This document shows positions 137-49,659 of a stretch of 51,535 nt of DNA, piece after piece. Made by a program: the position numbers and the translations under genes. How positions within the stretch are numbered: position 1 is the first letter of the stretch; each line of letters opens with the position of its first letter. The stretch spans positions 1-51,535 of the forward strand of contig JBFWJS010000009.1 in assembly GCA_050253075.1 (NCBI GenBank), in the 5' to 3' direction. The stretch comes from Deferribacterales bacterium. Lineage in GTDB: Bacteria; Chrysiogenota; Deferribacteres; Deferribacterales; Geovibrionaceae. The notes beneath the pieces are model-generated. The model was not told the DNA's origin, did no database searches, and was given only the letters and a program-made list of their open reading frames with translations.

Positions 137-221
137 ATACCGTAAGATTCCTCGGACTACCAGAAAAACTGACGGTATCAGTGACGGTATAAACGAAATC
201 GCCCAAAAGGAGATACCGTCA
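137..221. repeat. Putative integrase arm-type sites (left end)
   Basis: TGACGGTAT at 170-178 and 182-190; inverted ATACCGTCA at 213-221 and ATACCGT at 137-143. Confidence 0.65.
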
Positions 222-1411
222 TGGCTTTAAACGATAAACAAATCTCTAGTGCGCAATATATTGATAAACAATATAAAATTCAAGACGAAAAAGGCATGTA
301 CCTTTTGGTGACTAAATCTGGTAAATATTTTAGACTAGATTACAGATTCGGCAACAAAAGAAAGACCTTAGCATTAGGAGTATATGACGAAACCACATTA
401 AAAGATGCTCGAACTAAAAGAGATGAAGCAAAGAAATTACTTGAGCAAGGCATTGACCCATCACTATTAAAACAACAGATAAAAAAACAAATAGTCAGTG
501 ACACTGAAAATACTTTTGAAGCGTTGGCACTTAAATGTTTTGAAAACTATGATCCACGTTTATCAAAAAAACATGTCGAGAGAAAATGGCGCAGGCTTGA
601 AAAACATGCACTGCCCTACCTAGGTAAAACACCGATCAAACACATAACTGCGCCAATGATTTTAAGCGTTATACAAAAGATTGAAAAACGGGGGAATTTT
701 GAAACTGCTCATAGGGTATTTGGTGTTTGCAGTGAAATTTTTGTATATGCAATCGCAGATGGTCTAATAGATAGGGACCCCACAAGAGATATACATAAAG
801 TTCTAAAGCCTAAAAAGACGAAACGTATGGCGACAATAACTGACCCTAAGAAAATAGGCCCTCTCCTTAAAGCTATTGACGACTACGACGGTTACTATGA
901 AACTCAGTGTGCATTAAAGCTTCTTCCACTTGTTTTTGTCCGTCCAGGAGAATTAAGACATATGGAGTGGGACGAAATTGACTTTGAAGAAAAACTTTGG
1001 ACAATACCTCCAGAGAAAATGAAAATGCAACGAGAACACATAGTCCCTCTTTCAGTACAAACATTAGAAATTATTAAAGACATACAACAGATTACTGGGC
1101 AATGGAAATATGTCTTTCCTTCAATACGCTCTAAAGATCGACCTATGAGCGATAACACAATAAATGCTGCAATTAGAAGGCTTGGCTATACTAAAGAAGA
1201 ACTTACAGGTCACGGATTCAGAAGTATGGCATCAACTCTTTTGAACGAGAAGAACTGGCCTTCAGATCACGTAGAAGTTCAACTAGCACATGTAGATGGT
1301 AGCGTCCGAGGGATATATAATAGTGCAATCTATCTTGAATCTCGAATTAAAATGATGCAGTGGTGGGCAGACTACCTTGATGAATTGAAAACAAATACAA
1401 AAAACAATTGA
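221..1411 (+). CDS. P4-like tyrosine integrase with arm-binding domain
   Basis: N-terminal arm domain (GMYLLVTKSG..FRLDYRFGNKRKTLALGVY); catalytic VRPGEL, HGFR, QLAH and Y motifs. Confidence 0.95.
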   Translation: MALNDKQISSAQYIDKQYKIQDEKGMYLLVTKSGKYFRLDYRFGNKRKTLALGVYDETTLKDARTKRDEAKKLLEQGIDPSLLKQQIKKQIVSDTENTFEALALKCFENYDPRLSKKHVERKWRRLEKHALPYLGKTPIKHITAPMILSVIQKIEKRGNFETAHRVFGVCSEIFVYAIADGLIDRDPTRDIHKVLKPKKTKRMATITDPKKIGPLLKAIDDYDGYYETQCALKLLPLVFVRPGELRHMEWDEIDFEEKLWTIPPEKMKMQREHIVPLSVQTLEIIKDIQQITGQWKYVFPSIRSKDRPMSDNTINAAIRRLGYTKEELTGHGFRSMASTLLNEKNWPSDHVEVQLAHVDGSVRGIYNSAIYLESRIKMMQWWADYLDELKTNTKNN

Positions 1412-2859: not shown

Positions 2860-4722
2860 ATGTGGCATGATATTGAAACAAATGATGATTTACTAAATTT
2901 TCAGATAATCGCAAAAACTGCAGCCAGTTTAATTACTGAGTCTGAAAACGAGCCCCTTTCTATAGGCGTTTCAGGTAATTGGGGAACAGGAAAATCCTCT
3001 TTACTTAAAATGATTGAATCGCAATTGAATTCAATAAATAAAGACAATAATTATGTATTCTTAACTTTTAATGCTTGGCTTTACCAAGGATATGATGATG
3101 CAAAAATAGCTTTAGTGCAAAAAGTTGCTGACTTGCTTCTAAAAGAAGCTGAAAATCGTAAATCTGCTATAGAAATTGCAAAAGAATTTGTCGGAAGAGT
3201 AAATTGGTTAAAACTTGCTAAGTTTTCAGCTCCTGCTATTAGTGCAATGCTTACAGGCGGTGCCGATGGTGGGGCAATTGGTACTTTTATGGCGTCATTA
3301 ACTAATTTATTCAGCAAGGAATCAGCTGAATTAAAACATGACGAGTTGATTGCATTAAAAGATCAATTTAAAAGCATTTCCCCTGATCTAGCAAAAATAC
3401 TTCAAGCTAAACAAGATGTATCTGTACCTCAAGAAATAGAAGATATGAGAAGTTTATTTAGAGACCTCTTAGAAGAACTCAATATTAAACTAATCGTCTT
3501 TGTTGATGACTTAGACAGATGCCTACCTGAAACTGCAATCTCAACTCTGGAAGCTATGAGGTTATTACTGTTTATGCAAAGGACTGCATTTGTTATAGCA
3601 GCTGATGAACAGATGATAAGAAGTGCCGTTAAATCACACTTTAACAATGCAGACTTGGACGGAGATATAGTTACTAGTTACTTTGATAAACTTATCCAAG
3701 TACCCTTGAGAGTTCCTAGGCTCGGAGGTAATGAGGTTAAAGCGTATATCATATTATTACTAGCAGAAAGAGCATGCAAACAAGGAAAAATAAGTAAAGA
3801 GGAAAAGATTAAAGGTAAAAATGAAATTTTAACGATCATAAACAAGAGCTGGGAAGGTGGATTGAACCGACAAAAAATTGAAATTGCATTTGATGATTCT
3901 GCGAAAAGTATCTCAACTGAAATAGACATAGCTGATCAGCTAGCGAATATAATGACAACATCAAAATATATCCAAGGCAACCCCAGACTAATCAAACGCT
4001 TTCTAAATAATCTAATAATCAGAGAGACCATAGCAAAAGCTCAAGGTATGACAGTTGAATTCGGTGAGCTTGCAAAAATTCAATTATTAGAGAGATGTGT
4101 CTCAAACAGCGCCTTTGAAAAATTTGCTAGTGAAGTTGCAAAATCTGATAATGGTAAATTAAAAATCATTAAAGAAGCTGAGTTTAAGATTGCTAAGGGT
4201 GAAGAATATATAAGCCCAGTAGAGGAATTAAATTCTGATTTCTTTCATGAGTGGCTAACTCTATATCCGCCTTTAGGAAACACTGACTTGAGACCTTTAA
4301 TGTATTTAAGCAGGGATAAAGCAATCTCAATTGGCAATCTCGATGAATTATCAAAAGAAGCCCAAGATATATATGAGGCAATTTTAGTTGCCTCAAAACT
4401 TCACTTTGTTAAAAAAGAAATTGAAAAACTAGACAATATTGAAGCTGAAAAAATATTAAATCGATTAATACGTAATGCAAGATCAAAGCAATATGAATTA
4501 GATGCAATTTCTCAAGCCGGATTCATAGTCAAATGCTTTCCTAACCTTGCTCAACATTTTTGTGAGCTGTTAGATGAAATACCATATGATAAAGTTAGCC
4601 CGGCGTTACCATCAATTATTAAAAATGAACAATGGGCTAACAAGATTCTTGAGAAATGGTCGAAGGCAGAAGGGTACGATAAACTAAACAGAGCAGCTAA
4701 AACTGCCAAAGGAGTAAAATAA
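2860..4722 (+). CDS. qatA: Qat anti-phage system KAP-family P-loop ATPase QatA
   Basis: MWHDIET start, Walker A GNWGTGKS, FNAWLYQGYDDAK, Walker B VDDLDRC, NPRLIKRFLN; first gene of a four-gene overlapping operon. Confidence 0.9.
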   Translation: MWHDIETNDDLLNFQIIAKTAASLITESENEPLSIGVSGNWGTGKSSLLKMIESQLNSINKDNNYVFLTFNAWLYQGYDDAKIALVQKVADLLLKEAENRKSAIEIAKEFVGRVNWLKLAKFSAPAISAMLTGGADGGAIGTFMASLTNLFSKESAELKHDELIALKDQFKSISPDLAKILQAKQDVSVPQEIEDMRSLFRDLLEELNIKLIVFVDDLDRCLPETAISTLEAMRLLLFMQRTAFVIAADEQMIRSAVKSHFNNADLDGDIVTSYFDKLIQVPLRVPRLGGNEVKAYIILLLAERACKQGKISKEEKIKGKNEILTIINKSWEGGLNRQKIEIAFDDSAKSISTEIDIADQLANIMTTSKYIQGNPRLIKRFLNNLIIRETIAKAQGMTVEFGELAKIQLLERCVSNSAFEKFASEVAKSDNGKLKIIKEAEFKIAKGEEYISPVEELNSDFFHEWLTLYPPLGNTDLRPLMYLSRDKAISIGNLDELSKEAQDIYEAILVASKLHFVKKEIEKLDNIEAEKILNRLIRNARSKQYELDAISQAGFIVKCFPNLAQHFCELLDEIPYDKVSPALPSIIKNEQWANKILEKWSKAEGYDKLNRAAKTAKGVK

Positions 4723-5549
4723 TGGGGACTTCTTCATCAAGCTCAGGACCAGGGTCCAATGTTCCACTAGATCCTGCATGGCTTAATAACATACTTCCTG
4801 ACCTACTTTTTGGAGACTTGCCTAATATTTTACAAGGGACTCCAGCAGTCGAACCTCCAAACAGGGAAGAAATTGCAGCTCCACAACGTTTTAATGGGGC
4901 AAGAAGAAATTTAAACAAGTTTGCCAAAACTGGCAGTACAGAAAATCTAAGGCGAGCCTTGGGGAATTATTCCAAGAATGGAATGGGTGGGGCAAATAGA
5001 CTTGCATCAAGGATGAAAGTCCCTTCTGTTGTCGGAGTTGGGATGTATCGCCTTCTCCAAGAGATGGGTAACCCAACAGATCCTAACACAAAAAAATGGA
5101 TCGATAACATAGTCAATAATAATTTATCCGCGTATGAAATTGCTGATCAAATATGTCATAAAATAATTCAAAATGGCGGCACTGTTGATGAAGAATCTGC
5201 TCGTAATTCAATAAATACAGCAATCTCTGACTTAATACAAAAAGATCCTAATGTTGATCTACTAAAGCTATCCAACGAGGATATTTGGTATGTTATAGAA
5301 TGTTTCATAGGCGAAGAGGTTTCTAATAGAGTTATTTTAGACATCGGTCAATACCTTGAAACAAGCGATATCTCTCCAAAAGATAGGGTTGAGCGTTATA
5401 GTGAAATGAGTGATTATATTAAAGCTGAGGTCGCATCAAATATTGAAGATGTTAGAAATAAATATAGTAATCCAACCCCAAAACAAATATTTCAAATATT
5501 ACATGACTCTATTAAAAATACTTTCGAAGTTTTTGAAGGTGACTTATGA
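4722..5549 (+). CDS. qatB: Qat anti-phage system protein QatB
   Basis: MGTSSSSSGP..VPLDPAW N-terminus, RF.GARR motif, lies between the KAP ATPase and the QueC-like gene. Confidence 0.85.
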   Translation: MGTSSSSSGPGSNVPLDPAWLNNILPDLLFGDLPNILQGTPAVEPPNREEIAAPQRFNGARRNLNKFAKTGSTENLRRALGNYSKNGMGGANRLASRMKVPSVVGVGMYRLLQEMGNPTDPNTKKWIDNIVNNNLSAYEIADQICHKIIQNGGTVDEESARNSINTAISDLIQKDPNVDLLKLSNEDIWYVIECFIGEEVSNRVILDIGQYLETSDISPKDRVERYSEMSDYIKAEVASNIEDVRNKYSNPTPKQIFQILHDSIKNTFEVFEGDL

Positions 5550-6832
5550 GAAAAGTAGTTTGTTTACCAAAGAACCTACTCCCCAATAGGCTAAATTCAA
5601 ATACAAAATATTTTATTACATACGGTATGCCTCTTAATAAAAGCATAGTCGGGTATTTCGCTCATGATTTAAAAAACTATATGAAAAGGAATGGTATTGT
5701 TCCATCAGTTAGTGCGTGGGATTTTAACACAATAGCATTGTCAGTAGTTGCTGCAGATAAGTCTTTAAAAAGGTCTCTGAGTGCAGATGGTTGGACAAGA
5801 GAAATTCAGCTTGATATTCACTTGGTGGATCCTAAACCTTGGTATCTTATTAAAAGTGACTTAGCAAAAACTTTACAATTTCTAACTGGAGATTTATGGG
5901 AAATCAATTTTCTTGATGGAGGGACCCCTCCCCCAACTATTAATAAACCAAAAAATTATGATGCAGACTCTGTTTCTTTACTTTCTGGAGGTGTGGATAG
6001 CTTAGTAGGAGGGATTGATTTAGTTGCTAGTGGTAAAAAGCCAATTTTACTTTCACAAACAGTAAGGGGTAATGCTGTAGCACAACAGCTATTTGCGAGC
6101 CGACTTGTACCAGATACACACCATTTTCAAATAAGCCATAAGCTACATTGTCTTAGTGGTGAGTCTGAAGACTCTACCCGTGCAAGATCTATTACATTCT
6201 TTTCTTTTGCTGCTATGCTTGCATCATATTTATCGACAATAAAAGGTCATAATATTGATCTGGTCGTTCCTGAGAATGGCTTCATTAGCTTAAACCCACC
6301 TTTAAACACAGGTAGAATAGGAAGTTTTAGCACAAAGACTACGCATCCAGTATACATGGCAGGTTTGCAAAAGATTTGGAACGCAATTGGTTTAGATGTG
6401 CAGCTAATCTCCCCATATCAATTTCAAACAAAAGGCGAAATGCTTTCTAACTGTTTAAATACCCAACTTCTAAAGTCACTCATAGCAGACTCAACCAGTT
6501 GTGGCAAGTTTGGAAGAAATAAAATGCAGCACTGCGGTAGATGCGTCCCTTGTATGGTAAGGCGAGCAGCTTTTTTAAGTTCAGGATTTACCGACAACAC
6601 AATTAAAGGGTACACCTATCAAAATATTGCGACAGGTGGCCGCTCTAACGGTCCTAATGATATTGGTGCAATGGCTGCATTTTGTTTGAAATATAGAGCA
6701 AAGGGCATAGATAATCTCGTTCAAGGCAGTTTGTCCTTTGCTGACCCAAGTATGAGGAACAACTACTTAAGCGTTATTGAAAGAGGAATAATTGAACTAG
6801 AAGCGCTATTAAAACATCATAGAGTATTATGA
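5546..6832 (+). CDS. qatC: Qat anti-phage system QueC-like protein QatC
   Basis: PP-loop SGGVDS, DGWTR, VPENG.ISLN.PL, STKTTHP, Zn site SC...HCGRCVPC. Confidence 0.9.
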   Translation: MRKVVCLPKNLLPNRLNSNTKYFITYGMPLNKSIVGYFAHDLKNYMKRNGIVPSVSAWDFNTIALSVVAADKSLKRSLSADGWTREIQLDIHLVDPKPWYLIKSDLAKTLQFLTGDLWEINFLDGGTPPPTINKPKNYDADSVSLLSGGVDSLVGGIDLVASGKKPILLSQTVRGNAVAQQLFASRLVPDTHHFQISHKLHCLSGESEDSTRARSITFFSFAAMLASYLSTIKGHNIDLVVPENGFISLNPPLNTGRIGSFSTKTTHPVYMAGLQKIWNAIGLDVQLISPYQFQTKGEMLSNCLNTQLLKSLIADSTSCGKFGRNKMQHCGRCVPCMVRRAAFLSSGFTDNTIKGYTYQNIATGGRSNGPNDIGAMAAFCLKYRAKGIDNLVQGSLSFADPSMRNNYLSVIERGIIELEALLKHHRVL

Positions 6833-7554
6833 TAGATTTCCATACTCACTTAGATTTATATACTAATGCATTAGCAATTTTACCCAAGGTAAACAAATGC
6901 AACCTTTTTACCTTAGCAGTCACCACCAGTCCTCGTGCTTGGGTTATGGCAAATAAATATTTCCAGCCTTACAAAAACATACACGTAGCACTCGGGCTAC
7001 ATCCAGAAAATATTATTAATAAGCAAAATGAGATCGACTATTTTATTAAATCTATTGAATCGACCAAGTATATTGGAGAAATAGGAATTGATGGTTCTTC
7101 CAAAAATAAGCACTCATTGCCTAAACAAGAGTCTTTTTTTGAAAGAGTAATTGCACAAAGCCAAAAGTTTAAGGGAAAGATTTTCAGCATCCATTCAAGA
7201 GGAGCAGCTGCGAAGGTTCTAGATATACTAGAAAGTTACCCTAATTCGGGCAAATATGTACTACACTGGTTCACAGGGACAACAAAGCAACTTTCTAAAG
7301 CAATAGATATGGGATGTTATTTTAGTGCAGGACCAGTAATGACTCAAAGTAAAAATGGGCAACAGATTTTAAACATGATTCCCAAAGACAGAATTGTGCC
7401 CGAGTCTGATGGACCTTTTGTTAGGTTTAATAACGATCCTATTATGCCTTGGGATGCCATATTAATCAAAGATTACCTATGCAGACAATGGCAATATACT
7501 GAAAAACAAGTAATAAGCGTTTTTAGACAAAATTTAAAAAATATCCACTCATAA
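6829..7554 (+). CDS. qatD: Qat anti-phage system TatD-family nuclease QatD
   Basis: IDFHTHLD, GLHP, IGEIGID, IHSR, LHWF and ESDGP motifs. Confidence 0.92.
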   Translation: MIDFHTHLDLYTNALAILPKVNKCNLFTLAVTTSPRAWVMANKYFQPYKNIHVALGLHPENIINKQNEIDYFIKSIESTKYIGEIGIDGSSKNKHSLPKQESFFERVIAQSQKFKGKIFSIHSRGAAAKVLDILESYPNSGKYVLHWFTGTTKQLSKAIDMGCYFSAGPVMTQSKNGQQILNMIPKDRIVPESDGPFVRFNNDPIMPWDAILIKDYLCRQWQYTEKQVISVFRQNLKNIHS

Positions 7555-8601: not shown

Positions 8602-8946
8602 TTACATTATATTTTTCAAAGCTTCAAGCATGCTGAGAATTTTCACTCTCTGATCAGCTTCAGAGCTGTTTAAGGCATTTTGGATATCTAGAATCGTCCT
8701 ATCTATTGTGACTTTGTTTTTGTCTGTTACAAGGTCGCAGATGTGCACTTCAAGGGCATTTGCGATGTTGGTGAGGATGATTAAAGACGGATTGGCTTTA
8801 CCAGTTTCAAGGTGTGATATGTATGTAGGGTGCAGATCTGAAAGTTCAGCAAGCTTCTCCTGTGAGAATCCCTTTGCCTTACGGTTCTCCCTAATCCTTT
8901 CCCCCAAAGCTTTTAAAATATCTTCATTAATGCCTTTTTCATACAT
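8602..8946 (-). CDS. XRE-family HTH regulator
   Basis: LGERIRENRKAKGFSQEKLAE...TYISHLETGKANPSL. Confidence 0.9.
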   Translation of the reverse strand: MYEKGINEDILKALGERIRENRKAKGFSQEKLAELSDLHPTYISHLETGKANPSLIILTNIANALEVHICDLVTDKNKVTIDRTILDIQNALNSSEADQRVKILSMLEALKNIM

Positions 8947-9077
8947 TTAATGAATATATTATTTAAGCCGCCATACAAACATAGAGTATAATACATATTA
9001 TTTGATTTAGTATTAATTATACCTTATCATAAATGTCAAAAATTAGACTATTATCTATTTTCAATAGGAGTGTTAAA

Positions 9078-9965
9078 ATGAAACAAGTTGTTCTGATTCT
9101 TTTGACTGTGATGACACTGGCAACAGGTGGCGCACAAGCAAATAACGTGTATTGTCAAAACTTCGTAGATACTTTTAAAGACATCAAGTCTGGAAGTAGA
9201 GACGGAGCAATTGTCGCAAATGATAGAGATACATATTTTCCAGGCAAATACGGTAGCTTTGATGTAGTGGCTAATAAATTATATAGTACTGACAAAGATA
9301 AAGCTTACCAACTTAGTAAAAACGGTAGTTATGCCACAATGATTAATTCTGTAGCAGACTACATAGGCCGCAATAACAATCCTGCTCAACTTGCTGTATT
9401 ACAGGAGCTTGTAAACGGTATCTTAATTAAACTAAAAAATGGCACATATACTGTTGTGTCACCAGCTGTATGGCTACATACTTAACTGTCACATATTAAT
9501 TATGCTTGGGACATTGTAGAAATGTTGTTCATGGAAGATGGGTTAATAGACTATTATAAAAAGAATACTTCTCAAGAGAGCCTTAATTATGTTCAATAGA
9601 TGTACTTTTATTTTGGTGCAAAGCTGGAATTAATCTCTGCTCTAGCACAACATGATCTGGCAGCGGTAGATAAGGTGTTAAATACAGGTCGTCCAGCTCC
9701 AGCATGTTTGGATTATTTTGAATCATCTCCGAAAAGTATAAACAGCTTAATTATTAGGCTAGAAACAGAGTGTAACAACTATAATGCAGTTTCATGTTCC
9801 CAGTTAGGACTTTTTTATGAAAAAGGTATAGGAACTAAAAAGAATTTAGTTACCTCTAATGCCTATTATCTGAAAGCATGTAAATTCGGACATACTATAT
9901 CCTGCTATGCTGATAAAAGTCTTACTACTCCAAGAGGTAAAGAGTTTACACCTTACATCCACTAG
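9078..9965 (+). pseudogene. Secreted Sel1-like repeat protein interrupted by two in-frame stops
   Basis: AGGAG RBS and signal peptide MKQVVLILL...AQA; ORFs 9078-9485 and 9600-9965 share a frame, with stops only at 9483 (TAA) and 9597 (TAG); Sel1 motif CSQLGLFYEKGIGTKKN...YYLKAC. Confidence 0.7.
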
Positions 9966-10035
9966 ATCATATAATCTGAAGTAGACAAGGATGTTATTTA
10001 TAACTAATCGTTGAATGGTAGTGCTGCTTCTAGCA

Positions 10036-10263
10036 TTACCATTTTCTCTGATATTTGATAGACTTCATCTTAAGGCGCTTTTTTCTAAAGAGCGCCTTTT
10101 TCTTTCGAGCATCAATTATTTTTTGTTTTCCATCTAGGTCTCTTGCCTTTTTTTGAGCATCCTTTTGTTCTAATCGGTTAAGCCAAAATGTTCCTATTGC
10201 AAGAGGAATTATGGAAAGAGCTATAATTATAAGAATTCTCGTCATAACTATTTCATAAGTCAT
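10036..10263 (-). CDS. Small single-TM protein with basic tail
   Basis: ATG overlaps the upstream stop (TAATG); ILIIIALSIIPLAIGTFWL followed by a Lys/Arg-rich tail. Confidence 0.55.
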   Translation of the reverse strand: MTYEIVMTRILIIIALSIIPLAIGTFWLNRLEQKDAQKKARDLDGKQKIIDARKKKALFRKKRLKMKSIKYQRKW

Positions 10264-11048
10264 TATGCACCTACCTTTGCGCAGAGGGTGTCTATTGCGC
10301 ACACAAACTCTGCTTCGGGTGTCATAGGTTTCACACCACTATTAGAATGATGGCTGAGTACGATATTCATTAGCTTCACTCTAGCCTCTTCCTCAATAAA
10401 GATCACTTTTTTTGCAATTCTATCCACAATCTCACAAGACATGTGTATATGGCCGAAGTTTCTTCCTGTTTGATTAAGACAAAAACCCGACTCTAACTCA
10501 TCATAACAATATGCTTTGCCAATATCATGCAGGAAGAGTCCGGTAAGCAACATCGCTCTGCTTACTACACGTGGCAATGTCTCAGCCTCAAGGAGTTTAA
10601 GACCAAATTCCATAGAATTGACCGTATGGACCAGTAGACCACCCATGTATGCATGATGGCTTGTAATACTCGCAGGAGCAGTGCAGAACTTCTTCATAAA
10701 GTCAGCATCATGTATAAGCATCTCGAAGTAACAGATGCAGCTTGTTTCATCTACTAGCTTGTACAACTCTATAAGTTTATCTTTATATACCCTATACAAG
10801 TCATTGATGTTCATGCGCATACTACATACCTTGATAAACTTTCTGTCGTTTCTTGTCAGGCGAACCCCGTCAATACTGACCTCTTCATATTTAGTAAGCA
10901 GGTGCATGTGTTCATCCACACGCTCGTAGCAGTATGCAATCTCTGTTCCCTGGTTGCCACAGACAGCAATCTTTAGGTATGAGTGACCATTAGAATTATA
11001 CAGCTTCTCATAGTATGTTACTGTGAAATCACCTAAATACGCATTCAT
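10263..11048 (-). CDS. HD-domain hydrolase, YhaM/CBF1-like 3'-5' exonuclease family
   Basis: APAS..HHAYMGGLLVHT, LHDIGK, GHI, LSHH, P.TPEA motifs; RBS GAGGTG. Confidence 0.85.
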   Translation of the reverse strand: MNAYLGDFTVTYYEKLYNSNGHSYLKIAVCGNQGTEIAYCYERVDEHMHLLTKYEEVSIDGVRLTRNDRKFIKVCSMRMNINDLYRVYKDKLIELYKLVDETSCICYFEMLIHDADFMKKFCTAPASITSHHAYMGGLLVHTVNSMEFGLKLLEAETLPRVVSRAMLLTGLFLHDIGKAYCYDELESGFCLNQTGRNFGHIHMSCEIVDRIAKKVIFIEEEARVKLMNIVLSHHSNSGVKPMTPEAEFVCAIDTLCAKVGA

Positions 11049-11164
11049 TCACCACCTCTCGATATTGTTTATTTTAATTATGTTCTATTTAAACAATATC
11101 ATTTATTTTGAACATGTCAACAAAAGAAATTGATTTTTGAATAACGTAAAAGTATGCTTTAAGC

Positions 11165-11362
11165 ATGGAAGTCAAACTGAAACCCGAATACCTTGAAGAA
11201 ATTAAGAAAAAACACACTACATACACGCTTGGTCGCCTCCTAAGCAACAATCAAGCTGTGCGTCTCTTCAAAGGTGAAGCCAACATCACTCTCAAAACCT
11301 TATACAAACTATCCCAAGATATGGGATGGGAATTTCCAGAACAATTCTACATAGACAAATAA
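11165..11362 (+). CDS. Small Cro/HTH-like protein
   Basis: 65 aa, GEANITLKTLYKLSQDMG resembles the C-terminal helix of XRE proteins; divergent from the HD gene. Confidence 0.5.
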   Translation: MEVKLKPEYLEEIKKKHTTYTLGRLLSNNQAVRLFKGEANITLKTLYKLSQDMGWEFPEQFYIDK

Positions 11363-11382
11363 GTTTTAACACACAATATATA

Positions 11383-11490
11383 TAAGAATATATTCTTTTT
11401 ATCATAAGAACTATTTCTTATGTTTTGTAAGAAATAGGTATTATTTATATAAGAATTTATTCTTATAAACCGTAAGAATAATTATCACGT
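11383..11490. repeat. Iteron-like array of five TAAGAA(-N4-TTCTTA) units
   Basis: TAAGAA starts at 11383, 11405, 11428, 11450 and 11473; followed by a very AT-rich tract. Confidence 0.65.
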
Positions 11491-11636: not shown

Positions 11637-12152
11637 ATGCTTTTGAGAGATGCGATAAAGAAGGTAATTAAAGACGCGAAGCTTGATGAAGAGGAAAAGT
11701 TATATAAAATCATGCATCTTATCGACTACGATGAAGAAATGTATAAAGCCCATAAACCATATTTTGACGTACCTAAATCAATAATATATTTTTTACTTGA
11801 AAATAATAATATAAGTGTAGATCCTAAAGATACTTTTTCAATGGAGAAACTAAGAACTGTAGAGTTATTATTAAGCCATCCAAAAGTACTCGAACCAGTA
11901 TTCAAAAAAATCAAACCAGAAAAGCGTAAGATATTAACAAATCATAATAATAAACCAAAATGGGAACGTCACATATACACTAGGTTTGCTAACATCGCCC
12001 CTGAGGAAACACTATATTACAAACATATTGAAAAGGAAGTAGAAGACTTTTATAATTTCCATCATATCCCATCTATAAAGAAAGCATTCCATAATGCCAG
12101 AGACTTACACTACAAAAGGCGCAAAAAGTTCTTAGCCAAAAAAGAGCTTTGA
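11637..12152 (+). CDS. Hypothetical protein
   Basis: 171-aa ORF with AGGAG RBS and an upstream TTGACT..TATAAT promoter-like sequence. Confidence 0.65.
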   Translation: MLLRDAIKKVIKDAKLDEEEKLYKIMHLIDYDEEMYKAHKPYFDVPKSIIYFLLENNNISVDPKDTFSMEKLRTVELLLSHPKVLEPVFKKIKPEKRKILTNHNNKPKWERHIYTRFANIAPEETLYYKHIEKEVEDFYNFHHIPSIKKAFHNARDLHYKRRKKFLAKKEL

Positions 12153-13361
12153 TATTTTGGTAACCCTATCACTAATTAGCGAGCATATTTTGAATGATAT
12201 TTCATTTGAAGGATGCCTATATATATAAGCCCCTTTAATCATCTCTGAAAGCTGAGCAACGTATTTCTTCAGAGACGTATATCTTATATCAACATCACCA
12301 CATAGCTGTTTCCAGTTGTCTATTGTTACATTATCAGGGTTAAGCTCGCCGCCGACAGACATAGCCAGTTTTTTAGATATGCCGCTGTAAATCGAAGTGC
12401 AAACTAAATCATAAAATGGAGCTAACTGTGGACGCCCTTTCATCTCTGGCGGATAGAGCAGTGAAATATTCTTAGCGTGTGCGTCAGCATTGCCTATAAG
12501 AAAGTTGAAGATAAACCACCTGATAAGCAATATTTTATCCGCTGCCGGCCTACTTGACACATCAGCGATTAGTTTGACGCAATCTGAAAAGCTAGGACCG
12601 CTGTCTGACTCGTATTTTACGTGATAGGCATACCCAAGAGCCTGACAGAAGTCTTCTTGATGCAGACGGCAGATTTTGCCTTCATTTAAATATCTGTCAT
12701 ACCTCTCTATGAAAAGAGCTGACACCTGCCCTACTTTCCTGATCTCAGTATTGCAGACTGGAAGTCCGCAAGCTTCTGCCAGTTTATTACAGAAAAGCTC
12801 ATTTGCTGGCAAGCCTTCAAACTTAGGGCTGAATGGTTTGACTATATGAGTACTTGGCGAGTTACCGAGCGGTAGGTATAATTTTTTATTTTCAATCTTG
12901 ATTGAGGTCTTGGCCTGAGCACCTGCCAGAGAGAGACGATACATGTCATTGTCTTCCGCTGGAGATGTTTGATCAAGCTTTTCAATCAGCTTGAGAATAT
13001 CTTTTTCATTGAGGAGTTCATATTTATTATCAGTATCTTTAAGATCAGAATCAGAGGTAATTACGATTGCTCCGGCACATTCTCCGCCGAAACGCTTGAG
13101 GAGCCCGAACACATTTTCAGATGATATTTTGGTGACTCTGGAGATTATCTTTCTCTGCTCACCTTCAGGAAGAAGGTTTTCAAAGAATATACGAGCCTCA
13201 GTCCCTTCGAACAGTTTTTCATTTACAGGCAAAATGAGCGACAGACCATTAAGGCTGTAAGCTTCGTCATACTCAAATAGCATATCAACGCCAGTATTAA
13301 TAAGGTTTCCGGCTTTGATATATTCCCCTTTTACTTCAATGAAAACGTTAATAGATTCCAT
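12132..13361 (-). CDS. hipA: HipA-family toxin kinase with N-terminal coupled domain
   Basis: FFENLLPEG, LSLAGAQAK, THIVKP, ERYDR, HQEDFCQALG, GNADAHAKNISL, LAPFYDL. Confidence 0.95.
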   Translation of the reverse strand: MESINVFIEVKGEYIKAGNLINTGVDMLFEYDEAYSLNGLSLILPVNEKLFEGTEARIFFENLLPEGEQRKIISRVTKISSENVFGLLKRFGGECAGAIVITSDSDLKDTDNKYELLNEKDILKLIEKLDQTSPAEDNDMYRLSLAGAQAKTSIKIENKKLYLPLGNSPSTHIVKPFSPKFEGLPANELFCNKLAEACGLPVCNTEIRKVGQVSALFIERYDRYLNEGKICRLHQEDFCQALGYAYHVKYESDSGPSFSDCVKLIADVSSRPAADKILLIRWFIFNFLIGNADAHAKNISLLYPPEMKGRPQLAPFYDLVCTSIYSGISKKLAMSVGGELNPDNVTIDNWKQLCGDVDIRYTSLKKYVAQLSEMIKGAYIYRHPSNEISFKICSLISDRVTKISKLFFG

Positions 13362-13573
13362 TATTCATCACCAACGTAAATGGAGAGTCCTGCATATTTG
13401 AGCAGTTTGATCACTTTACCAATCTGTGCAGTAGGTTTGCCACGCTCCACCTCGGAGACTATGCGGTTCCCTACCCCTACTGCCTCAGCAAATTCTTTCT
13501 GGTTAAGCCCCTGCTCTTCCCTCTTTTGCCTGAGCAGTTGCCCTATTTCTTCAATATCTGATATTTTCTTCAT
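13361..13573 (-). CDS. hipB: HipB-like XRE antitoxin
   Basis: HTH protein (LNQKEFAEAVGVG...EVERGKPTAQIGKV) coupled to hipA through TAATG. Confidence 0.85.
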   Translation of the reverse strand: MKKISDIEEIGQLLRQKREEQGLNQKEFAEAVGVGNRIVSEVERGKPTAQIGKVIKLLKYAGLSIYVGDE

Positions 13574-13772: not shown

Positions 13773-14366
13773 ATGAGTAAAGTGCTTAAAATCTACTCTC
13801 CTTTATTGTTTTCTTTATTAGCATTAATTGTTTCAATTAAAAGTTGCGATACTGCTGATAAAAGTTACGAATTATCTAAACAACAGTATATAAACTCAAC
13901 AACAACCATATAGAGTGCCACTGTTGACAGCAACAACTCTTTAAATATTAGGCCATTAAACGATAAAATAGTTATACAAGACATTGCAGTTTTTTATCCT
14001 AATGAAGTCTCTGATAATAAATGGGAAATATATGCACCAGACTATAAACTACCATTGGTGATGCCATTGTTCCAGATAAAACATTTAATCGCTAACGAGC
14101 TAAAACCAAGTTCTGGTTTTATCAATTACGCTCCTGAGATCGAAATACCTATTATAATTGAATCATATTATTCATTTAATGGTTTAAACCAGTATGACAA
14201 GTCTTTGTACGTTCTCGATATGGATGCTGTAATATCAGATAACCGCACGAAACCAAAAGTAACGGTTAATGGAATAAAATTTATTGAAAAACTACCTTTA
14301 CAAACAAGTATTCAAACATACTTGGACGATCTTTGGACTAAAAGAAACATAGAATATTCAAACTGA
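13773..14366 (+). pseudogene. Membrane-anchored hypothetical protein with one in-frame TAG
   Basis: MSKVLKIYSPLLFSLLALIVSIKSC... is in frame with ORF 14055-14366; single stop at 13911-13913. Confidence 0.65.
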
Positions 14367-14422
14367 AATGAGGCTAACCTCATCTTGCCTAAATTTGACA
14401 CCTCAACTAAACATCTGATTAA

Positions 14423-14590
14423 TCAAATAATATTATAACTGTTCACTATTAACTACTTAACTTGTTCAAAATTATCATGGCTATTAATTATGATGTCAAT
14501 ATTACATGGGCCGAAATATCCTATGTTGCTTACATCTCTTACTAGATCTTCATGCAAATTGACTTCTTGTAGAACGCTTATATTCAATTA
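14423..14590 (-). pseudogene. Remnant of a DUF5655-like domain
   Basis: Reads EVNLHEDLVRDVSNIGYFGPCNIDIIINSHDNFEQVK*LIVNSY, resembling the RDV.NIGH.G.GD.E...I..SY motif of DUF5655. Confidence 0.5.
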
Positions 14591-14818
14591 TTACTGATTA
14601 GCCATTGTTGCGCACTCAGGACAAACCTCTGTATTTCTATTCGCCTTTTATCACCTCACGAACTCATAAAATTTATATAGGAACCCAGCCGCCAGTATCC
14701 TCAGCAGCCAGAACGTCATGCTCTTAAAACCTCTTTATGTCAAACCTTCACAAGAGGGTGGAAAAAAGAGGGAAATATTTATATTATGACTGTGAAACAA
14801 CTTTCTAAGAGGTGAAAC

Positions 14819-15202
14819 ATGTCTAACGAAATAGCTATGCTCCTGGCTGCGCTTATCGGTGGAGCAACAGGAATTGTTGGACAAGCTTGGATTTTATTTC
14901 TTAATAGAAAAAAAGAACTCAAACATCTGACATATGATAAAAAATACATTCTCTACAACGAGATAATAAATAAGCTTCTGGAATTTGCAGGAAAAGCAAA
15001 TGCAAAAAGAGATGCAGGAGAAGACCATGAAATAGTTGCGGATGAACTTCTGTTTTATCGTATTCAGAATCGTATTTTGATGTCTCCAAAGATAGATAAG
15101 CAAATATGAGATATGATTTACAAACTCAGAAACGGTGAAATAACCCTTTATGATATTGGCGAACTGACCAAAGCTCTTAAAAAGGATTTGCAAATAAAAT
15201 AA
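14819..15202 (+). pseudogene. Array gene 1: single-TM protein with an in-frame TGA at 15107
   Basis: After the TGA the frame continues DMIYKLRNGEITLYDIGELTKALKKDLQIK*, matching the C-termini of the paralogs. Confidence 0.75.
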
Positions 15203-15243
15203 CCCCACCCCCGCAACCACATATTAAAACAAGGAGACCTAAT

Positions 15244-15657
15244 ATGACAGAAGCACTTTTTGGAGGATTGGTAGGAGCTGTAATTGCCAGCTTTATAACA
15301 GCATGGCTGCAAAACCTTATCAACATTAAGAATGAAAAACGTCATGCTTTACGTGAATATTATGCAGTACTTAGCCAATGGCACACAGCACACCTCGAGA
15401 ATCAATACCAGAAATACAAAGAAATCAGCCAAAAAGAGAGCGATACTTTCGGCAGATCTGCATACTTGCTTAAAATGAACATAGTTGAAAACATCGTAAG
15501 ATATAAAGTTTTGTTGTATAGCTACCAACATATAAATGAAGGCAAAACAGTTGTTTACAAGAGAAGCAAAGAAGAGGTCCTTAGTGAAACATTTAATGAA
15601 ATAGAAGAAATATTCCATGAAATACACACCTATTTCGAAAGGTGTCTGAATAAATAA
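15244..15657 (+). CDS. Array gene 2: single-TM hypothetical protein
   Basis: AAGGAG RBS; N-terminal LFGGLVGAVIASFITAWL. Confidence 0.75.
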   Translation: MTEALFGGLVGAVIASFITAWLQNLINIKNEKRHALREYYAVLSQWHTAHLENQYQKYKEISQKESDTFGRSAYLLKMNIVENIVRYKVLLYSYQHINEGKTVVYKRSKEEVLSETFNEIEEIFHEIHTYFERCLNK

Positions 15658-15698
15658 CCTCATATAAGCACCACCCGATAAATGAAAGGAGATAAAAC

Positions 15699-16175
15699 AT
15701 GAGCGACCCACATACATTTACTATTAAACTGCTTCAAGACGGAATAAATCCTATCTGGCTGATTATAATAAGTGCAGCTATAGGTACTTTTGCTGGTATA
15801 ATCGGACAAATGCTTATGGCTCACTTGAATCACAAAAGAGACCTTGAAAAAATTTCATACGAAGCAAAATGCCAGCTTTACACAAAAATTATTGAAACAG
15901 TAAAAAAATATCAAAATGAAATAACTGAAGCTGAATACGAGTATGACCAAGGATATAGAGAGGACCTTATAATAGACCATGAGCATGGCACGTACATGCA
16001 TGAACAGAAATCTTATGAACTTAAACACTTTATAACGCTTAACAGAATACTTATATCAAAGAAAGTCATAATAGAACTCGAAAGCATGACAGAGAAGTTT
16101 TACTTCAATAAAGTCACTAATCAATCTATCGAAGAACTTGCAAAAGAACTTAAAGAAGACCTCGGTATTAATTAG
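15699..16175 (+). CDS. Array gene 3: single-TM hypothetical protein
   Basis: AAGGAG RBS; TM helix then LNHKRDLEK; ends LKEDLGIN. Confidence 0.8.
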   Translation: MSDPHTFTIKLLQDGINPIWLIIISAAIGTFAGIIGQMLMAHLNHKRDLEKISYEAKCQLYTKIIETVKKYQNEITEAEYEYDQGYREDLIIDHEHGTYMHEQKSYELKHFITLNRILISKKVIIELESMTEKFYFNKVTNQSIEELAKELKEDLGIN

Positions 16176-16215
16176 CCTCATCCCCGCACCACCTATAATT
16201 AAAAGGAGATACAGA

Positions 16216-16677
16216 ATGACTGATACAATCTGGGCGGCGATCATAGCCTCTGGAACAACCGTTCTCGGTCTTATAGCTGGCTATATAGGACAAGCAATTA
16301 ACGCTAGAATCAACCATAAGAGAGAGCTTGAAAAGCTGGCATTTGAAAAGAAATATACCGTATACAATGAACTCATAAAAATGGCTATTAAGTACTACAA
16401 TGAAATGATATATATAAATTCTGAAGAGGCTCGTGAATATGACGATACTCCTTTCATATACGATCATGACCCTGAAACTGGTGATACAACCTACGTTCAT
16501 GAGGTTCGATGTAAAACCCTTGAACAATTCCTTGATGCAAATTACATGATCATACCTAAAGAAATACATAATAAAATAAACGATATTATTAATAAGCTTA
16601 GTGATATCACGCTTAAAGAAGCTGACGTTCACTCGCTCATTCACGCATTAAAAACAGATATAGGTATAAAAATATAA
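16216..16677 (+). CDS. Array gene 4: single-TM hypothetical protein
   Basis: AAGGAG RBS before ATG 16216; TM helix then INHKRELEK; ends LKTDIGIKI. Confidence 0.8.
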   Translation: MTDTIWAAIIASGTTVLGLIAGYIGQAINARINHKRELEKLAFEKKYTVYNELIKMAIKYYNEMIYINSEEAREYDDTPFIYDHDPETGDTTYVHEVRCKTLEQFLDANYMIIPKEIHNKINDIINKLSDITLKEADVHSLIHALKTDIGIKI

Positions 16678-16718
16678 CCTCATTCCAGCACCACCTGATA
16701 ATTAAAAGGAGTAACACT

Positions 16719-17201
16719 ATGGCAGCAGAACAGATCGCACAAACAGCTTCTCAAACACCACTCTGGATGTTCTTTTTTAGCACTCTCGGCGGAACAATAG
16801 CAGGAGGTTTTATAACTATTTCCGGCAATCTGTTTATAGAAAAAAGGAAGACTAAAATCGATGAAAATAAAGCCCTCAAAGAGACTCTGATCAACTTCAA
16901 AAAAATCCTTGTAAACAAGACACGTGATGCATTGCGTCACGAGGCAAATTGCCCATGTTGCAACGTCATAGATAGAATTGATGAAACAATAAACGAATTC
17001 ATGTACATATCGCACGTTATATATAAATTTGAATGCAGTAAAACAGTCCATAACTACGTTAGCCTGCTCATACAATATGCAAAGGTGCTTGATAAGTCCC
17101 CTGAAGACTCCTCGAAGATAAATGAACTTAAACTCAGTATACAAAGTGATCTTAATGAAGTTACATATGCAATCGATAAAGATATATTCAAGATCAAATA
17201 A
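16719..17201 (+). CDS. Array gene 5: single-TM hypothetical protein
   Basis: AAGGAG RBS; LWMFFFSTLGGTIAGGFITISGNLFI. Confidence 0.75.
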   Translation: MAAEQIAQTASQTPLWMFFFSTLGGTIAGGFITISGNLFIEKRKTKIDENKALKETLINFKKILVNKTRDALRHEANCPCCNVIDRIDETINEFMYISHVIYKFECSKTVHNYVSLLIQYAKVLDKSPEDSSKINELKLSIQSDLNEVTYAIDKDIFKIK

Positions 17202-17408
17202 TCTCATGCGTGTGACACCAAACCATTAAGGCTGGAACCTATAGAGCCAAATACCACAGCGGAGTGTTCATCGATGATAGCCTGTTTAATCAGCGCAGCA
17301 TCTTCCAGCGCCCCATAAACCTCGTATGGTAGTTGAACACATACGACGTTTACACACTTTATATACAGGCTCAAATGGGACAGCAAATATCGGAGCAACT
17401 TTCTATTA

Positions 17409-17428: not shown

Positions 17429-17483
17429 TTTCTAAATTTACAATTTCACTAACTATTGTATATAAATAATTTATAATATCTTA

Positions 17484-17499
17484 TCGATTCCTGCCTTCG
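17484..17499 (+). repeat. att core direct repeat (distal copy of the tRNA-Leu 3' end)
   Basis: 15/16 identity to bases 36-51. Confidence 0.8.
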
Positions 17500-45287: not shown

Positions 45288-45510
45288 TATTCACCTTAAA
45301 TTTAATAAATTTAGCATTGAGTAACACTTATTATGCTAATAAGTCAACAACATTATGCCTATATAAGGTGCTCTTAAGGAAATTTTACATTTTCATCCTA
45401 CTTTTTTCAGAGATATACGGATATATGAGACATAAAGAAAGAGATATATAAACTTCTTGATTTTACGAAACCACTTTGATATAAATTGATTCCCCATTAA
45501 ACATATCTTT

Positions 45511-45584
45511 CGGGGTGTAGCGCAGCTTGGTAGCGTGTTCGCTTGGGGTGCGAGAGGTCGCTGGTTCAAATCCAGTCATCCCGA
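45511..45584 (+). tRNA. tRNA-Pro(GGG)
   Basis: CGGGGTG/CATCCCG acceptor stem, anticodon loop TTGGGGT, GTTCAAATC T-loop; CCA not encoded. Confidence 0.93.
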
Positions 45585-45597
45585 TTTTAAATTCCTT

Positions 45598-45627
45598 TAA
45601 AGCCAGTAGTTTACCTGCTGGCTTTTT
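45598..45627 (+). terminator. Intrinsic (possibly bidirectional) terminator after tRNA-Pro
   Basis: AAAGCCAG..CTGGCTTTTT hairpin. Confidence 0.7.
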
Positions 45628-45673
45628 CATTTGTCACATATTTGTCACAGAATCTGACTATATTTTATGAATA

Positions 45674-47458
45674 TTAGCTCAACATAGTTGAATTGTTTTT
45701 CAAAAGATTATATATCGGAAAGCTCATGAATAACTCTTTTGCATCATGGTCTAGCTTACTAAGATATTTATTTGCTTCTTCAAATTCATCAAGCAGAATA
45801 CAGATACCAGCACTGATATCATTAGCAACTCCTTCAGAGTTGTATATGTTATAAAGGATGGCTTTCTCTTTAATTGAAAGTCTCTTTAAGCGTTTTAAAC
45901 ATTGAAAGTAATTTAGCAGGTAAATGTTTCCATTGATGTTATTATCATATAGATATTTACTAATTGATAATGCTGCATCTAATAGTTGATTGTTCTCTCC
46001 CATTGTTTCATCATAAGCTAGTAACATCTCCAAGACCATTTGATTTGTAGATTCAAAAAAAGCTTGAGAGTGTTTGATATCCTTTATATCTCGATCTATA
46101 TAACTATAATCAATGTTTGAGACCTCAATAAAATCATCCTTTTTCATAATGATAAATTGAGTCGTTTGAAATTTATCTCCTTGTGCATCATCAATAACAA
46201 CATGTACCTTACTATCAAAGAAATTATATAACATATAATCTCCATCAGTGTTTTTTGTTGTTAATAACATTAATGTGAGATTATTTATTTTAATTTTTAT
46301 TACAGGCGCTAACTTCAAAGTTGTATTTATAGGCTCTTTGAGAACTAGGGTTTGAACTAATGATTTTGCATTTTTAAATTCATTTTCTTGGAGATTACCT
46401 GGATTTAATAAGTCGTAATTACTCCCAGCCAAATGTATTGCTTCCTGAAACTGGTGAAGTTGTTTTAGTTGTAGTTTGATATTATCAATAAATTCCTTAC
46501 CAGAAGTTGTATTCTCCGTATTAAGCTCATATTCTTTCTCTTTACCAAAGCCTACAACCTTGGCTGTGGAGAAATCGACAATAAATTCTAGAGTTTTAAT
46601 AGCTTCTTTTAAGCTGCGACTACTGGTCCAAGAAATTTCAGCTCTAGAGCCATTATCCCCAATACTCATGGTTATATTTTCACCAAAGGTGATGGTTGTA
46701 TAATGGTCTTTTTGGGTAACATTAAATGAATTAAACCTTTTGATCCCATCTAAATAAATGGGCTCATTTTTTGTTAAACTTTCTAGTGTAATTTTTGCTT
46801 TCGCAATAGGTACGGTATATCCATCTGCGATATCCTTATACAAATAAATTGGATTATTTTTGATGTATTCAATCGGATTGCGGTTAGTTGCGAAAAAAGT
46901 TTGAATAGCTTCTAGTTTGCCATCTTCAGTTAATTTCCCAAAATTATGAATTATATTTGGATCAGTATATGCCATTTGTTTTTTCTTATGTTCCAAAAAA
47001 TTATTGAAAATTTCTATTATTTCACTTTCTTCATTTGGGAGTTTTATAAGTTTTATTGATTTATTTTTCTGAGATTTTTTTGTTTTGCTTAATAAAAGTT
47101 TAATGTCAAAAGGTAATAAAGCAGAATAGAAAATAACATGACCTTTGGTTTCTTTATCAATATGGACAACAAAAAAAATTGTCCCCGCTTTACTTAAGAA
47201 TGCTTTTAGATGTGATATTTTGACATTGTAGGATATTTCATCATCGCTGGTATGCTTGTCTACTGATTTACCTTTAACCTGTACATCTATACAGCCCTGG
47301 TAGTCATCCACTGAATTATATTCTGTATCAAGGGAATATACTATAATATATCCATCCCAAATGGGTTCTTTATCGTTTTCAGGAATGAAAGTTTTGATGC
47401 AGCTAATGTAACCTAATCTAGTTTTAAGATAATTGACTGCTAACGATTCAGTATTCAT
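45674..47458 (-). CDS. DUF4365-like restriction-endonuclease-fold protein
   Basis: N-terminal DKEPIWDGYI...IDVQVKG (PD-QxK type); helical C-terminus; very AT-rich. Confidence 0.7.
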   Translation of the reverse strand: MNTESLAVNYLKTRLGYISCIKTFIPENDKEPIWDGYIIVYSLDTEYNSVDDYQGCIDVQVKGKSVDKHTSDDEISYNVKISHLKAFLSKAGTIFFVVHIDKETKGHVIFYSALLPFDIKLLLSKTKKSQKNKSIKLIKLPNEESEIIEIFNNFLEHKKKQMAYTDPNIIHNFGKLTEDGKLEAIQTFFATNRNPIEYIKNNPIYLYKDIADGYTVPIAKAKITLESLTKNEPIYLDGIKRFNSFNVTQKDHYTTITFGENITMSIGDNGSRAEISWTSSRSLKEAIKTLEFIVDFSTAKVVGFGKEKEYELNTENTTSGKEFIDNIKLQLKQLHQFQEAIHLAGSNYDLLNPGNLQENEFKNAKSLVQTLVLKEPINTTLKLAPVIKIKINNLTLMLLTTKNTDGDYMLYNFFDSKVHVVIDDAQGDKFQTTQFIIMKKDDFIEVSNIDYSYIDRDIKDIKHSQAFFESTNQMVLEMLLAYDETMGENNQLLDAALSISKYLYDNNINGNIYLLNYFQCLKRLKRLSIKEKAILYNIYNSEGVANDISAGICILLDEFEEANKYLSKLDHDAKELFMSFPIYNLLKNNSTMLS

Positions 47459-47548
47459 GCGATATTAGCTCCGAGATATGAGATGTAAGCTTGTGTATAG
47501 GTTCTCTGTTGGTTAATATAACGGTTTTCTGTAGTAATTTAAAGAATA

Positions 47549-48697: not shown

Positions 48698-48715
48698 TAT
48701 TTTCCTATAGGTAAA

Positions 48716-48946
48716 TTAATCTTTGAGTGCATTTGGTGCAAGGAGAATCTTGATACTTGGATAATAAAACCGCACAACACGGTCTTTAATAAAATAATGT
48801 TGGTCATAAATCAGGAATTTAGACTTTATCCACCGATCAATTGTGTCTTCAGAAACTTCTAACTCTTCGGAAAGTTTCTTTTTGCTCATGAAGTCCGGCT
48901 TTGACGGCAATATGAATTCATTAATTACAATTTTTCTTTCACTCAT
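48716..48946 (-). CDS. Excisionase-like HTH protein
   Basis: FMSKKKLSEELEVSEDTIDRW; directly upstream of the integrase; RBS GAGGTG. Confidence 0.7.
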   Translation of the reverse strand: MSERKIVINEFILPSKPDFMSKKKLSEELEVSEDTIDRWIKSKFLIYDQHYFIKDRVVRFYYPSIKILLAPNALKD

Positions 48947-49045
48947 TGCTTCACCTCTTGAGATGACGCTAGCTTAAAAAAATGTGATTAAGTGTTGTTT
49001 TTGCAATTTCTGGAAACTTTTTTGTATTACTACAAGAATGTTATG

Positions 49046-49636: not shown

Positions 49637-49659
49637 ATCTCTCCAGCGGCGGCTATTGA

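Follow-up and report, generated by a model that had tools for sequence, protein, structure and literature searches.

Double ribosome-binding-site spacers and open antisense frames in a gene array of a Deferribacterales genomic island: a probable means of carrying ribosomes across backwards cargo

The window considered here is the whole 51,535-nt stretch of contig JBFWJS010000009.1 (assembly GCA_050253075.1, positions 1 to 51,535, forward strand) of a Deferribacterales bacterium. It harbors a low-GC island of 17.5 kb that begins in a tRNA gene and carries at its far end an array of five co-oriented genes (g1 to g5), separated by four spacers (s1 to s4) of 41, 41, 40 and 41 nt. All five genes lie on the plus strand: g1 (14819..15202), a broken member of a family of proteins with a single N-terminal transmembrane helix; g2 (15244..15657), encoding a divergent single-transmembrane protein of 137 aa; g3 (15699..16175; 158 aa) and g4 (16216..16677; 153 aa), both family members, the latter with a predicted transmembrane helix leading into a helical bundle; and g5 (16719..17201; 160 aa), again a divergent single-transmembrane protein. 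A preliminary description of this DNA had announced five co-oriented open reading frames of 127-160 aa joined by 40-41-nt spacers. Genes and spacers lie where it had placed them and the sizes hold for g2 to g5, but g1 is not a 127-aa reading frame, being interrupted at codon 97 by an in-frame nonsense TGA (15107-15109). This TGA is found with identical letters in contigs of runs X1 and X2, either of which is possibly the window's own source; X1 to X4 are DNA sequencing runs, and their contigs drop rare variants.

The grouping of g1, g3 and g4, with g2 and g5 far more divergent, also stood: the former share 30-35% amino acid identity, and the latter resemble them over the transmembrane segment alone (hhalign probability 22% and 10%; hmmsearch E ~5). 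Three relatives of the family reach E 1e-9 or better, one in the window's own genome (G000) and the others in two of 67 other genomes of the phylum; a fourth, weak match in G037 (E 9e-4) was viewed in translation only. One relative, P0009, is a hypothetical protein of Denitrovibrio acetiphilus, and the same protein is encoded at locus L019 of G002, a genome of the same genus as the window's, so that the host is probably a Denitrovibrio. No relatives of g2 and g5 were found in the 67 other genomes, a large protein set returned only g4 and g5 themselves, and a comparison of the array DNA with 60 relatives gave nothing beyond matches of 24-55 nt. Similarly, metagenome and viral contigs held no locus related to the family at the DNA level.

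The spacers are more alike than the genes that they separate, as had been proposed: s2 to s4 are mutually 73-83% identical and s1 is 54-68% identical to them, against 48-54% for coding DNA among the array genes, which is the level of codon shuffles. On the plus strand, a spacer presents the stop of one cargo gene, then AAGGAG, then the ATG of the next cargo gene, in agreement with the built-in ribosome-binding site (RBS) already attributed to it. The main feature, absent from the preliminary description, is the reading of the minus strand, which presents GGTGGTG, 5 nt, ATG AGG and then the complement of the cargo stop; this start opens a frame that runs codon-aligned antisense to the preceding cargo gene, hereafter called a bridge. 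The four variable bases of the spacer fall exactly between the minus-strand Shine-Dalgarno (SD) sequence and the start, and 41 nt is the length that places the TGA of the incoming frame on the next ATG. Two spacers are complete double RBS joints of this kind, with AAGGAG on the plus strand and an ATGA overlap on the minus strand, namely s2 (15658..15698; minus SD 15668-15675, ATG 15663) and s4 (16678..16718; minus SD 16688-16695, ATG 16683). The double RBS joint s3 (16176..16215; minus SD 16186-16193, ATG 16181) is one base shorter, and the incoming frame there ends at 16168 and shares 14 nt with the frame that follows. The 41-nt s1 (15203..15243) is a degenerate joint that keeps the plus-strand RBS; its minus-strand start is GTG and its coupling TGA reads TGG.

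Pairing of the minus-strand SD to the 16S tail amounts to -9.6 (s4), -9.5 (s3), -9.6 (s2), -8.2 (after g5) and -5.4 (s1) kcal/mol, so that an SD of -8 kcal/mol or stronger precedes four of five bridge starts, compared to 4.9% of 324 minus-strand ATGs of the island. Stop and start overlap as ATGA at 17204-17207, 16680-16683 and 15660-15663, and the bridges form a putatively coupled chain in which three of five junctions are ATGA, one is the 14-nt overlap and one is degenerate. Two partial spacer copies had been reported, and both are present. The copy at 17199 is a joint of the same type, where the stop of a 35-codon gene tail overlaps, as ATGA, the start of bridge 5. The copy at 14375..14383 (minus strand; ATG AGG TTA) is not in codon register with the gene behind, a gene containing 19 antisense stops, and is either a relic or a product of chance.

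Whether the spacer recurs across this and related genomes as a stop-to-start joint of variable genes had been posed as a test; in the collections searched, that layout was found only in the array of the window. The motif has three exact matches in its own genome, all within the array, looser patterns giving only background. In the 67 other genomes of the phylum it has two, which fall within a pyrophosphatase-like housekeeping gene. Collections of viral, genome and metagenome contigs, from which the window's own genome and its closest kin may be missing, gave 6, 16 and 22 matches; all were single and none had the stop/RBS/start layout. Rfam gave nothing at gathering level and no CRISPR family. 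The conserved letters and the fixed length of the spacer are explained by translation signals on both strands.

Five bridges cross the array on the minus strand. Bridge 5 (16680..17207) runs across g5 over 175 codons, codon-aligned, without a stop and with an ATGA overlap at both ends. Bridge 4 (16168..16683), across g4, has one internal stop (16648) with an in-frame GTG two codons on; bridge 3 (15660..16181), across g3, has two (16056, 15855) and ends in an ATGA overlap; bridge 2 (15148..15663), across g2, has one (15349), with an in-frame ATG two codons on, and passes s1; bridge 1 (14735..15208), across g1 and its leader, starts with GTG and has one (14894). In a codon-aligned antisense frame, stops arise from the sense codons TTA, CTA and TCA, and g1 to g5 contribute 1, 1, 2, 1 and 0 of them, that is 5 in 735 codons. 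Five of the 102 leucine and serine codons of the array are stop-forming, against 273 of 695 in thirteen other genes of the island (Fisher P 4e-14). Since the third positions of the array are far more AT-rich than those of the host (GC content at third codon positions, GC3, of 0.19-0.30), control genes were matched on GC3; GC3-matched genes of the same genome predict 38.8 antisense stops, and none of 100,000 simulations gave five or fewer (minimum 12). Other A-ending codons are not avoided in the array (Ile 0.56, Ala 0.52, Thr 0.50), and the use of ATA for 56% of cargo isoleucines does not suggest translational optimisation of the cargo. Stop-codon depletion in the antisense frame, a mark of functional antisense genes, is thus present. 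The bridge peptides are hydrophobic, a make-up that follows from the A-rich sense codons, and four of them matched no Pfam family below E 0.027.

In-frame restarts lie weakly closer to the stops than chance would place them (P 0.016). After the stop of bridge 4 (16629-16650, minus strand), TAATG, ATGA and GTGA steps regain the bridge frame within 16 nt, which may be chance. A greedy stop-restart relay with gaps of up to 27 nt was discounted, since random sequence would give the same.

Two relatives of the g1/g3/g4 family lie antisense between a gene that we take to be NusA-like, for which Pfam gave only a weak S1 match, and the traD-like coupling gene of a conjugative element. Fifteen traD-like loci were compared in 68 genomes, of which 12 share the same gene order and three are distant with other neighbours. 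In nine of the 12 the slot before traD is empty, the upstream gene abutting or overlapping traD, and in the other three it holds backwards cargo. In the slot of the window's own genome (G000, contig C3), a 289-codon bridge crosses two antisense genes, a family gene and an unrelated one; in G013, a bridge of 197 codons crosses one family gene; in G002, one of 219 codons crosses HigB and HigA. In all three, antisense genes thus lie between co-oriented genes of an operon, as in noncontiguous operons, and all three bridges are free of stops and end in ATGA on the traD start. They begin on the stop of the upstream gene in G000 and G002 and, in G013, after what appears by eye to be a remnant of that gene. 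The five cargo genes of the slots have no stop-forming codon among 89 for leucine and serine (P 3e-5 even with host codon usage). Among HigBA relatives located elsewhere (10 HigA and 8 HigB genes, L131 and two loci without a HigB-like gene being left out), 65 of 323 such codons are stop-forming, compared to 0 of 33 in the slot (P 0.0015), and the solitary family gene at L019 of G002 has 8 antisense stops where 7.7 are expected. Because the cargos of the slot are stop-free and the solitary or outside relatives have the usual stops, the open antisense frames appear, at the level of sequence, to track position inside the operon and not the identity of the cargo. A search of 15 loci for further coupled bridges returned only the known slots of integrative and conjugative elements (ICEs); in the window's own genome the search returned the known slot and three matches with a GC of 0.41-0.43 that are linked at one end only. 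Viral contigs contained no relative of traD.

The first cargo gene of the array is preceded by a candidate sigma-70 promoter (TGGAAA-17-TATTAT) and a leader (14759..14818, plus strand) that is similar to the leader in the traD slot. The promoter candidate (14759-14787) matches the consensus at 9 of 12 positions and is in register with the sites of the ICE slots; the region has 11 such sites, against 12.7 in shuffles. The likeness of the two leaders was equalled in 0 of 2000 shuffles for C3, in 3.75% for G013 and, when the SD was left out, in 7 of 3000. As for the slots themselves, the spacing between a -35-like TTGA and the traD start is identical in the three filled ones, and a palindrome, likely an operator, covers the candidate HigBA promoter in the slot of G002 (L067, 2830-2849). 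The gene that shares the slot of G000 with the family gene (L021 8721-9011; C3 56720-57010) encodes 96 aa, belongs to no known family and has no antisense stop. In G013 (L020, contig C6), the traD-like gene is truncated at 184 aa beside a CRISPR-Cas locus, presumably of type I-F judging from its genes and repeats; the element looks decayed and its bridge is still stop-free.

Taken together, the double RBS spacers and the near-stop-free, linked antisense frames probably carry ribosomes across cargo that was inserted backwards into an operon. The minus-strand frames are likely translated as filler, and likely the bridge peptides are irrelevant and translation itself is what is selected. Ribosomes that end the upstream gene would reinitiate on bridge 5 and then pass from bridge to bridge to the downstream gene. 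According to PMC12360218, translation shields against polarity, exposed untranslated RNA causes it and Rho silences AT-rich foreign DNA; Rho is present in the host genome. Translation of the bridges would likewise shield the U-rich transcript from premature termination, likely Rho-dependent, and keep the downstream coupling. At rest, the cargo would be transcribed from its own candidate promoter, and synthesis of the long opposite transcript would damp it, as in the phage noncontiguous operons described in PMC11087260. Tandem duplication of units made up of a gene and its joint, with later divergence, is the likely origin of the array, and homologous recombination between spacers may have helped.

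Several points weigh against this reading. Four of the five array bridges are interrupted by stops, s1 lacks its ATG/TGA joint, s3 is one base short, and the four spacers descend from one copy and are hence not independent. Typical host genes avoid TTA and CTA too, so that bulk host usage expects 9.8 antisense stops in the array (P 0.06) and only the GC3-matched and island controls are decisive for the depletion; moreover, TTA, CTA and TCA are also missing from some host genes of high expression (GC3 0.34-0.39). The three filled slots lie in related elements and are not fully independent, the solitary control is a single gene, traD itself is truncated in G013, and four plasmid loci with the same traD family show no AT-rich bridged cargo within 4 kb. 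The 35-codon tail upstream of the array matched no identifiable gene, so that the original operon is not traceable, and transcription and translation of the minus strand are predictions from the sequence. Finally, this strand is U-rich but not richer in C than in G (C 17%, G 18%), without the usual Rho-loading bias; Rho polarity is the pressure favoured here, and loss of coupling or mRNA decay may equally be the target.

In the preliminary description, the spacer could be a recombination site by which a cassette system acquires, discards or reorders its genes. Conserved spacers between coding DNA at shuffle level would suit such a system, as would the tyrosine integrase of the island, the variable content of the related ICE slot and the spacers' beginning in TAAC, like the inverse core of attC. 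The array does resemble integron cassettes in its tandem variable genes, conserved intergenic sites and nearby tyrosine recombinase. Integron attC sites form a long single-strand hairpin with RYYYAAC...GTTRRRY ends. Unlike them, all eight spacer strands fold at -2.4 to 0 kcal/mol without a shared structure, three of the four spacers fold with z of -0.1 to 1.1 and the weak hairpin of s1 is not common to the others, the ends of the spacers have no GTT core, and a candidate promoter belongs to the cargo itself. Searching the genome with TIGR02249 gave 12 weak matches, none over the IntI cut-off, so that the statement that the array is not an integron was upheld. It is no CRISPR either, as had also been stated, the repeats being 54-83% alike and separated by genes of 380-480 nt. 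The motif occurs in no other array, the ICE slots carry cargo without this spacer, no joints were listed in runs X1 to X4, whose contigs drop rare variants, and the four variable bases sit exactly between SD and start; recombination at the spacers is accordingly quite improbable. Slightly less probable still is that a gene and its 5' untranslated region were simply duplicated in tandem, the open antisense frames being a by-product of host-like codon use and the spacer being kept as an RBS or internal promoter. The paralogy of g1, g3 and g4, the P of 0.06 under bulk host usage and a TATAAT-like hexamer at the same place in s3 and s4 speak in its favour. It leaves unexplained, nevertheless, why CCTCAT and GCACCACC are conserved as blocks that precede the start by 30-40 nt, as well as the ATGA overlaps and the stop-free coupled frames of three ICE slots; the promoter scan lists no site within any spacer, and this explanation conflicts with the GC3-matched expectation of 38.8 against the 5 stops observed and with the count of 0 of 89 in the ICE slots.

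An unlikely alternative, though the least so of the three, is that the bridge peptides are themselves functional, each perhaps inhibiting its cargo protein or serving as its immunity partner. In its favour, every bridge has an SD and a start of its own, is hydrophobic and, in the array, is paired with a single cargo gene. One study has reportedly described long antisense genes that are translated and depleted in stops. An antisense inhibitor of a defence gene is also known, ith beside tha in S. aureus prophages (PMC11087260). Such a role accords poorly with the ICE slots, where one frame (G000 C3) spans two unrelated genes and another (G002) spans a complete HigBA pair that already owns its antitoxin, with the solitary family gene, which has no open antisense frame, and with bridge peptides of which four belong to no Pfam family, whose composition is explained by A-rich sense codons and which, over unrelated cargo, are unrelated by construction.

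The array is flanked within the window by no more than a gene tail and a broken gene. The tail, the last 35 codons of the upstream gene on the operon strand (17204..17311, minus strand), ends in the TGA that overlaps the ATG of bridge 5. It is cut by the end of an insertion sequence (IS), presumably of the IS256 family judging from its transposase, of which only the transposase start codon is left (17314..17372, minus strand); this element has 11 copies in G002 and forms a loose end in run X3. Downstream of the bridges on the operon strand lies the broken 3' end of an endonuclease gene that we take to be NucS-like (14432..14566, minus strand; 49% over 45 aa, E 3e-10, to a gene of G014). Because the IS end cuts the upstream gene, the NucS-like gene is broken, four bridges have stops and g1 has a nonsense codon, the array copy looks like a decaying relic of an operon cut by the IS. 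Single mutational steps lead to sense stops (300 routes) as readily as to antisense stops (298), and five antisense stops against one sense stop fit, on these small counts, bridges that relaxed first.

The island is bounded by the tRNA gene, within which the contig starts (1-59), and by a copy of the tRNA end (17483..17499, plus strand; 15 of 17 positions of 35-51), 282 nt past g5, so that the array does lie near the attachment end, as had been claimed. The anticodon of the tRNA reads CAA by eye, hence Leu, and the first 59 nt of the window repeat the end of contig C10. A P4-type tyrosine integrase (221..1411, plus strand) has Arm-DNA-bind_3, Phage_int_M and Phage_integrase domains. The same island carries a complete Qat anti-phage system, QatA-D (2860-7554, plus strand; PADLOC E 1e-34 to 1e-126). 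At 8602-11362, an XRE regulator, an HD-domain gene and a small regulator form a core common to islands in G003, G014, G001 and G006; in the islands of G003 and G014 the HD gene is accompanied by an integrase-like gene and a small gene, neither of which was seen at that place in the window. An AT-rich inverted repeat with 40-nt arms, 80% complementary, and a 7-nt loop (11381-11467) lies between the small regulator and the next gene. A gene that we take to be HipA-like (12132-13573, minus strand), with a helix-turn-helix gene upstream, has close DNA relatives in at least five genomes of the taxonomic family. A 197-codon gene (13773-14366, plus strand) with an N-terminal hydrophobic stretch has an in-frame TAG at codon 47 and a normal antisense stop content. 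A second low-GC island (45510-51535), after tRNA-Pro, holds a 594-aa gene, a tyrosine integrase (47549-48697, minus strand) and a lipoprotein-like gene.

As first proposed, a mobile element carries these genes as variable cargo; the role in immunity, exclusion or phage resistance then ascribed to them is plausible only. Given HigBA in the slot and Qat in the island, our best guess for the cargo proteins is that they act in defence or exclusion as membrane-anchored factors, a tentative guess that falls a little short of even. No array protein was above the cut-off in Pfam, no array gene came under E 0.007 in PADLOC, and PHROGs returned only families of unknown function (best E 3e-5, in one of seven members). 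A sequence search of the PDB gave E 0.2 or worse, without a sequence match to Csx28, and atlas matches of the cargo were unnamed, KilB appearing only at 0.90 with 151 shared features. The model of g4 (predicted local distance difference test, pLDDT, 82) shows a long N-terminal helix leading into a helical bundle; its fold matches are generic bundles, and those among viral proteins are uncharacterised (TM-score 0.66, E 0.15). Against Csx28 (PDB 8gi1), the modelled g4 gave Z 7.7 and a root-mean-square deviation of 4.7 A over 112 aligned residues (rank 11; Foldseek E 3.4). The latter protein forms a membrane pore that acts against phages (bioRxiv 10.1101/2021.11.02.466367), and the predicted cargo would resemble it in size and in its N-terminal transmembrane helix followed by a helical bundle. 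This likeness is a lead only, as the Z lies below the level of common arrangement among helical bundles, the sequences do not match and no Cas13 was seen in the island of the window.

Noncontiguous operons, such as the S. aureus men operon and those of phage 80alpha, transcribe across untranslated antisense regions, which PMC11034616 explains by the uncoupled transcription of Gram-positives. Such operons hold, inside one transcript, backwards genes with their own promoter, toxin-antitoxin and phage genes among them. The slots, and presumably the array, likewise place genes backwards within an operon, with candidate promoters before them, but the antisense stretch is here an open, start/stop-linked frame and the host bears Rho. 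By analogy, the array may be regarded as a noncontiguous operon joined to translational coupling. With Tha/Ith (PMC11087260) it has in common that putative defence cargo is carried antisense on a mobile element and would switch with that element's life cycle; unlike Ith, which is a functional antisense inhibitor, the bridges cross unrelated cargo without a sign of protein function. The junctions are of the type known from ATGA/TAATG coupling and from upstream open reading frames (uORFs) that shield Rut sites (tnaC, speFL, cruR; PMC12360218). Those uORFs are short, conditional and located in leaders, whereas the bridges have 150-290 codons, are wholly antisense and are repeated as modules. This locus contributes a double RBS joint in repeated form and a slot whose cargos are unrelated to one another. 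In the literature searched, mostly open-access main texts, no account of coupled filler frames running through antisense cargo was found, and the text of PMC7457138 contained none of the key terms on filler frames.

If the bridges do carry ribosomes across the cargo, this would answer how RNA polymerase crosses an untranslated antisense stretch, a question raised in the Discussion of PMC11034616, and would explain noncontiguous operons where transcription and translation are coupled. It would imply selection on translation itself and not on a protein, acting through synonymous codon choice in the opposite gene. The signature of an AT-rich gene without TTA, CTA and TCA together with ATGA joints could locate cargo hotspots in transfer and phage operons, and hydrophobic "hypothetical proteins" of this kind may be fillers. 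A 41-nt joint with back-to-back RBSs would make any gene stackable in an operon without polarity and off when the operon fires, which suggests a design rule for the insertion of genes into operons. More broadly, and here we see the chances as evenly balanced, mobile elements of Rho-bearing bacteria may keep long empty frames under selection purely to carry ribosomes across backwards cargo, the array being the modular form of this device.

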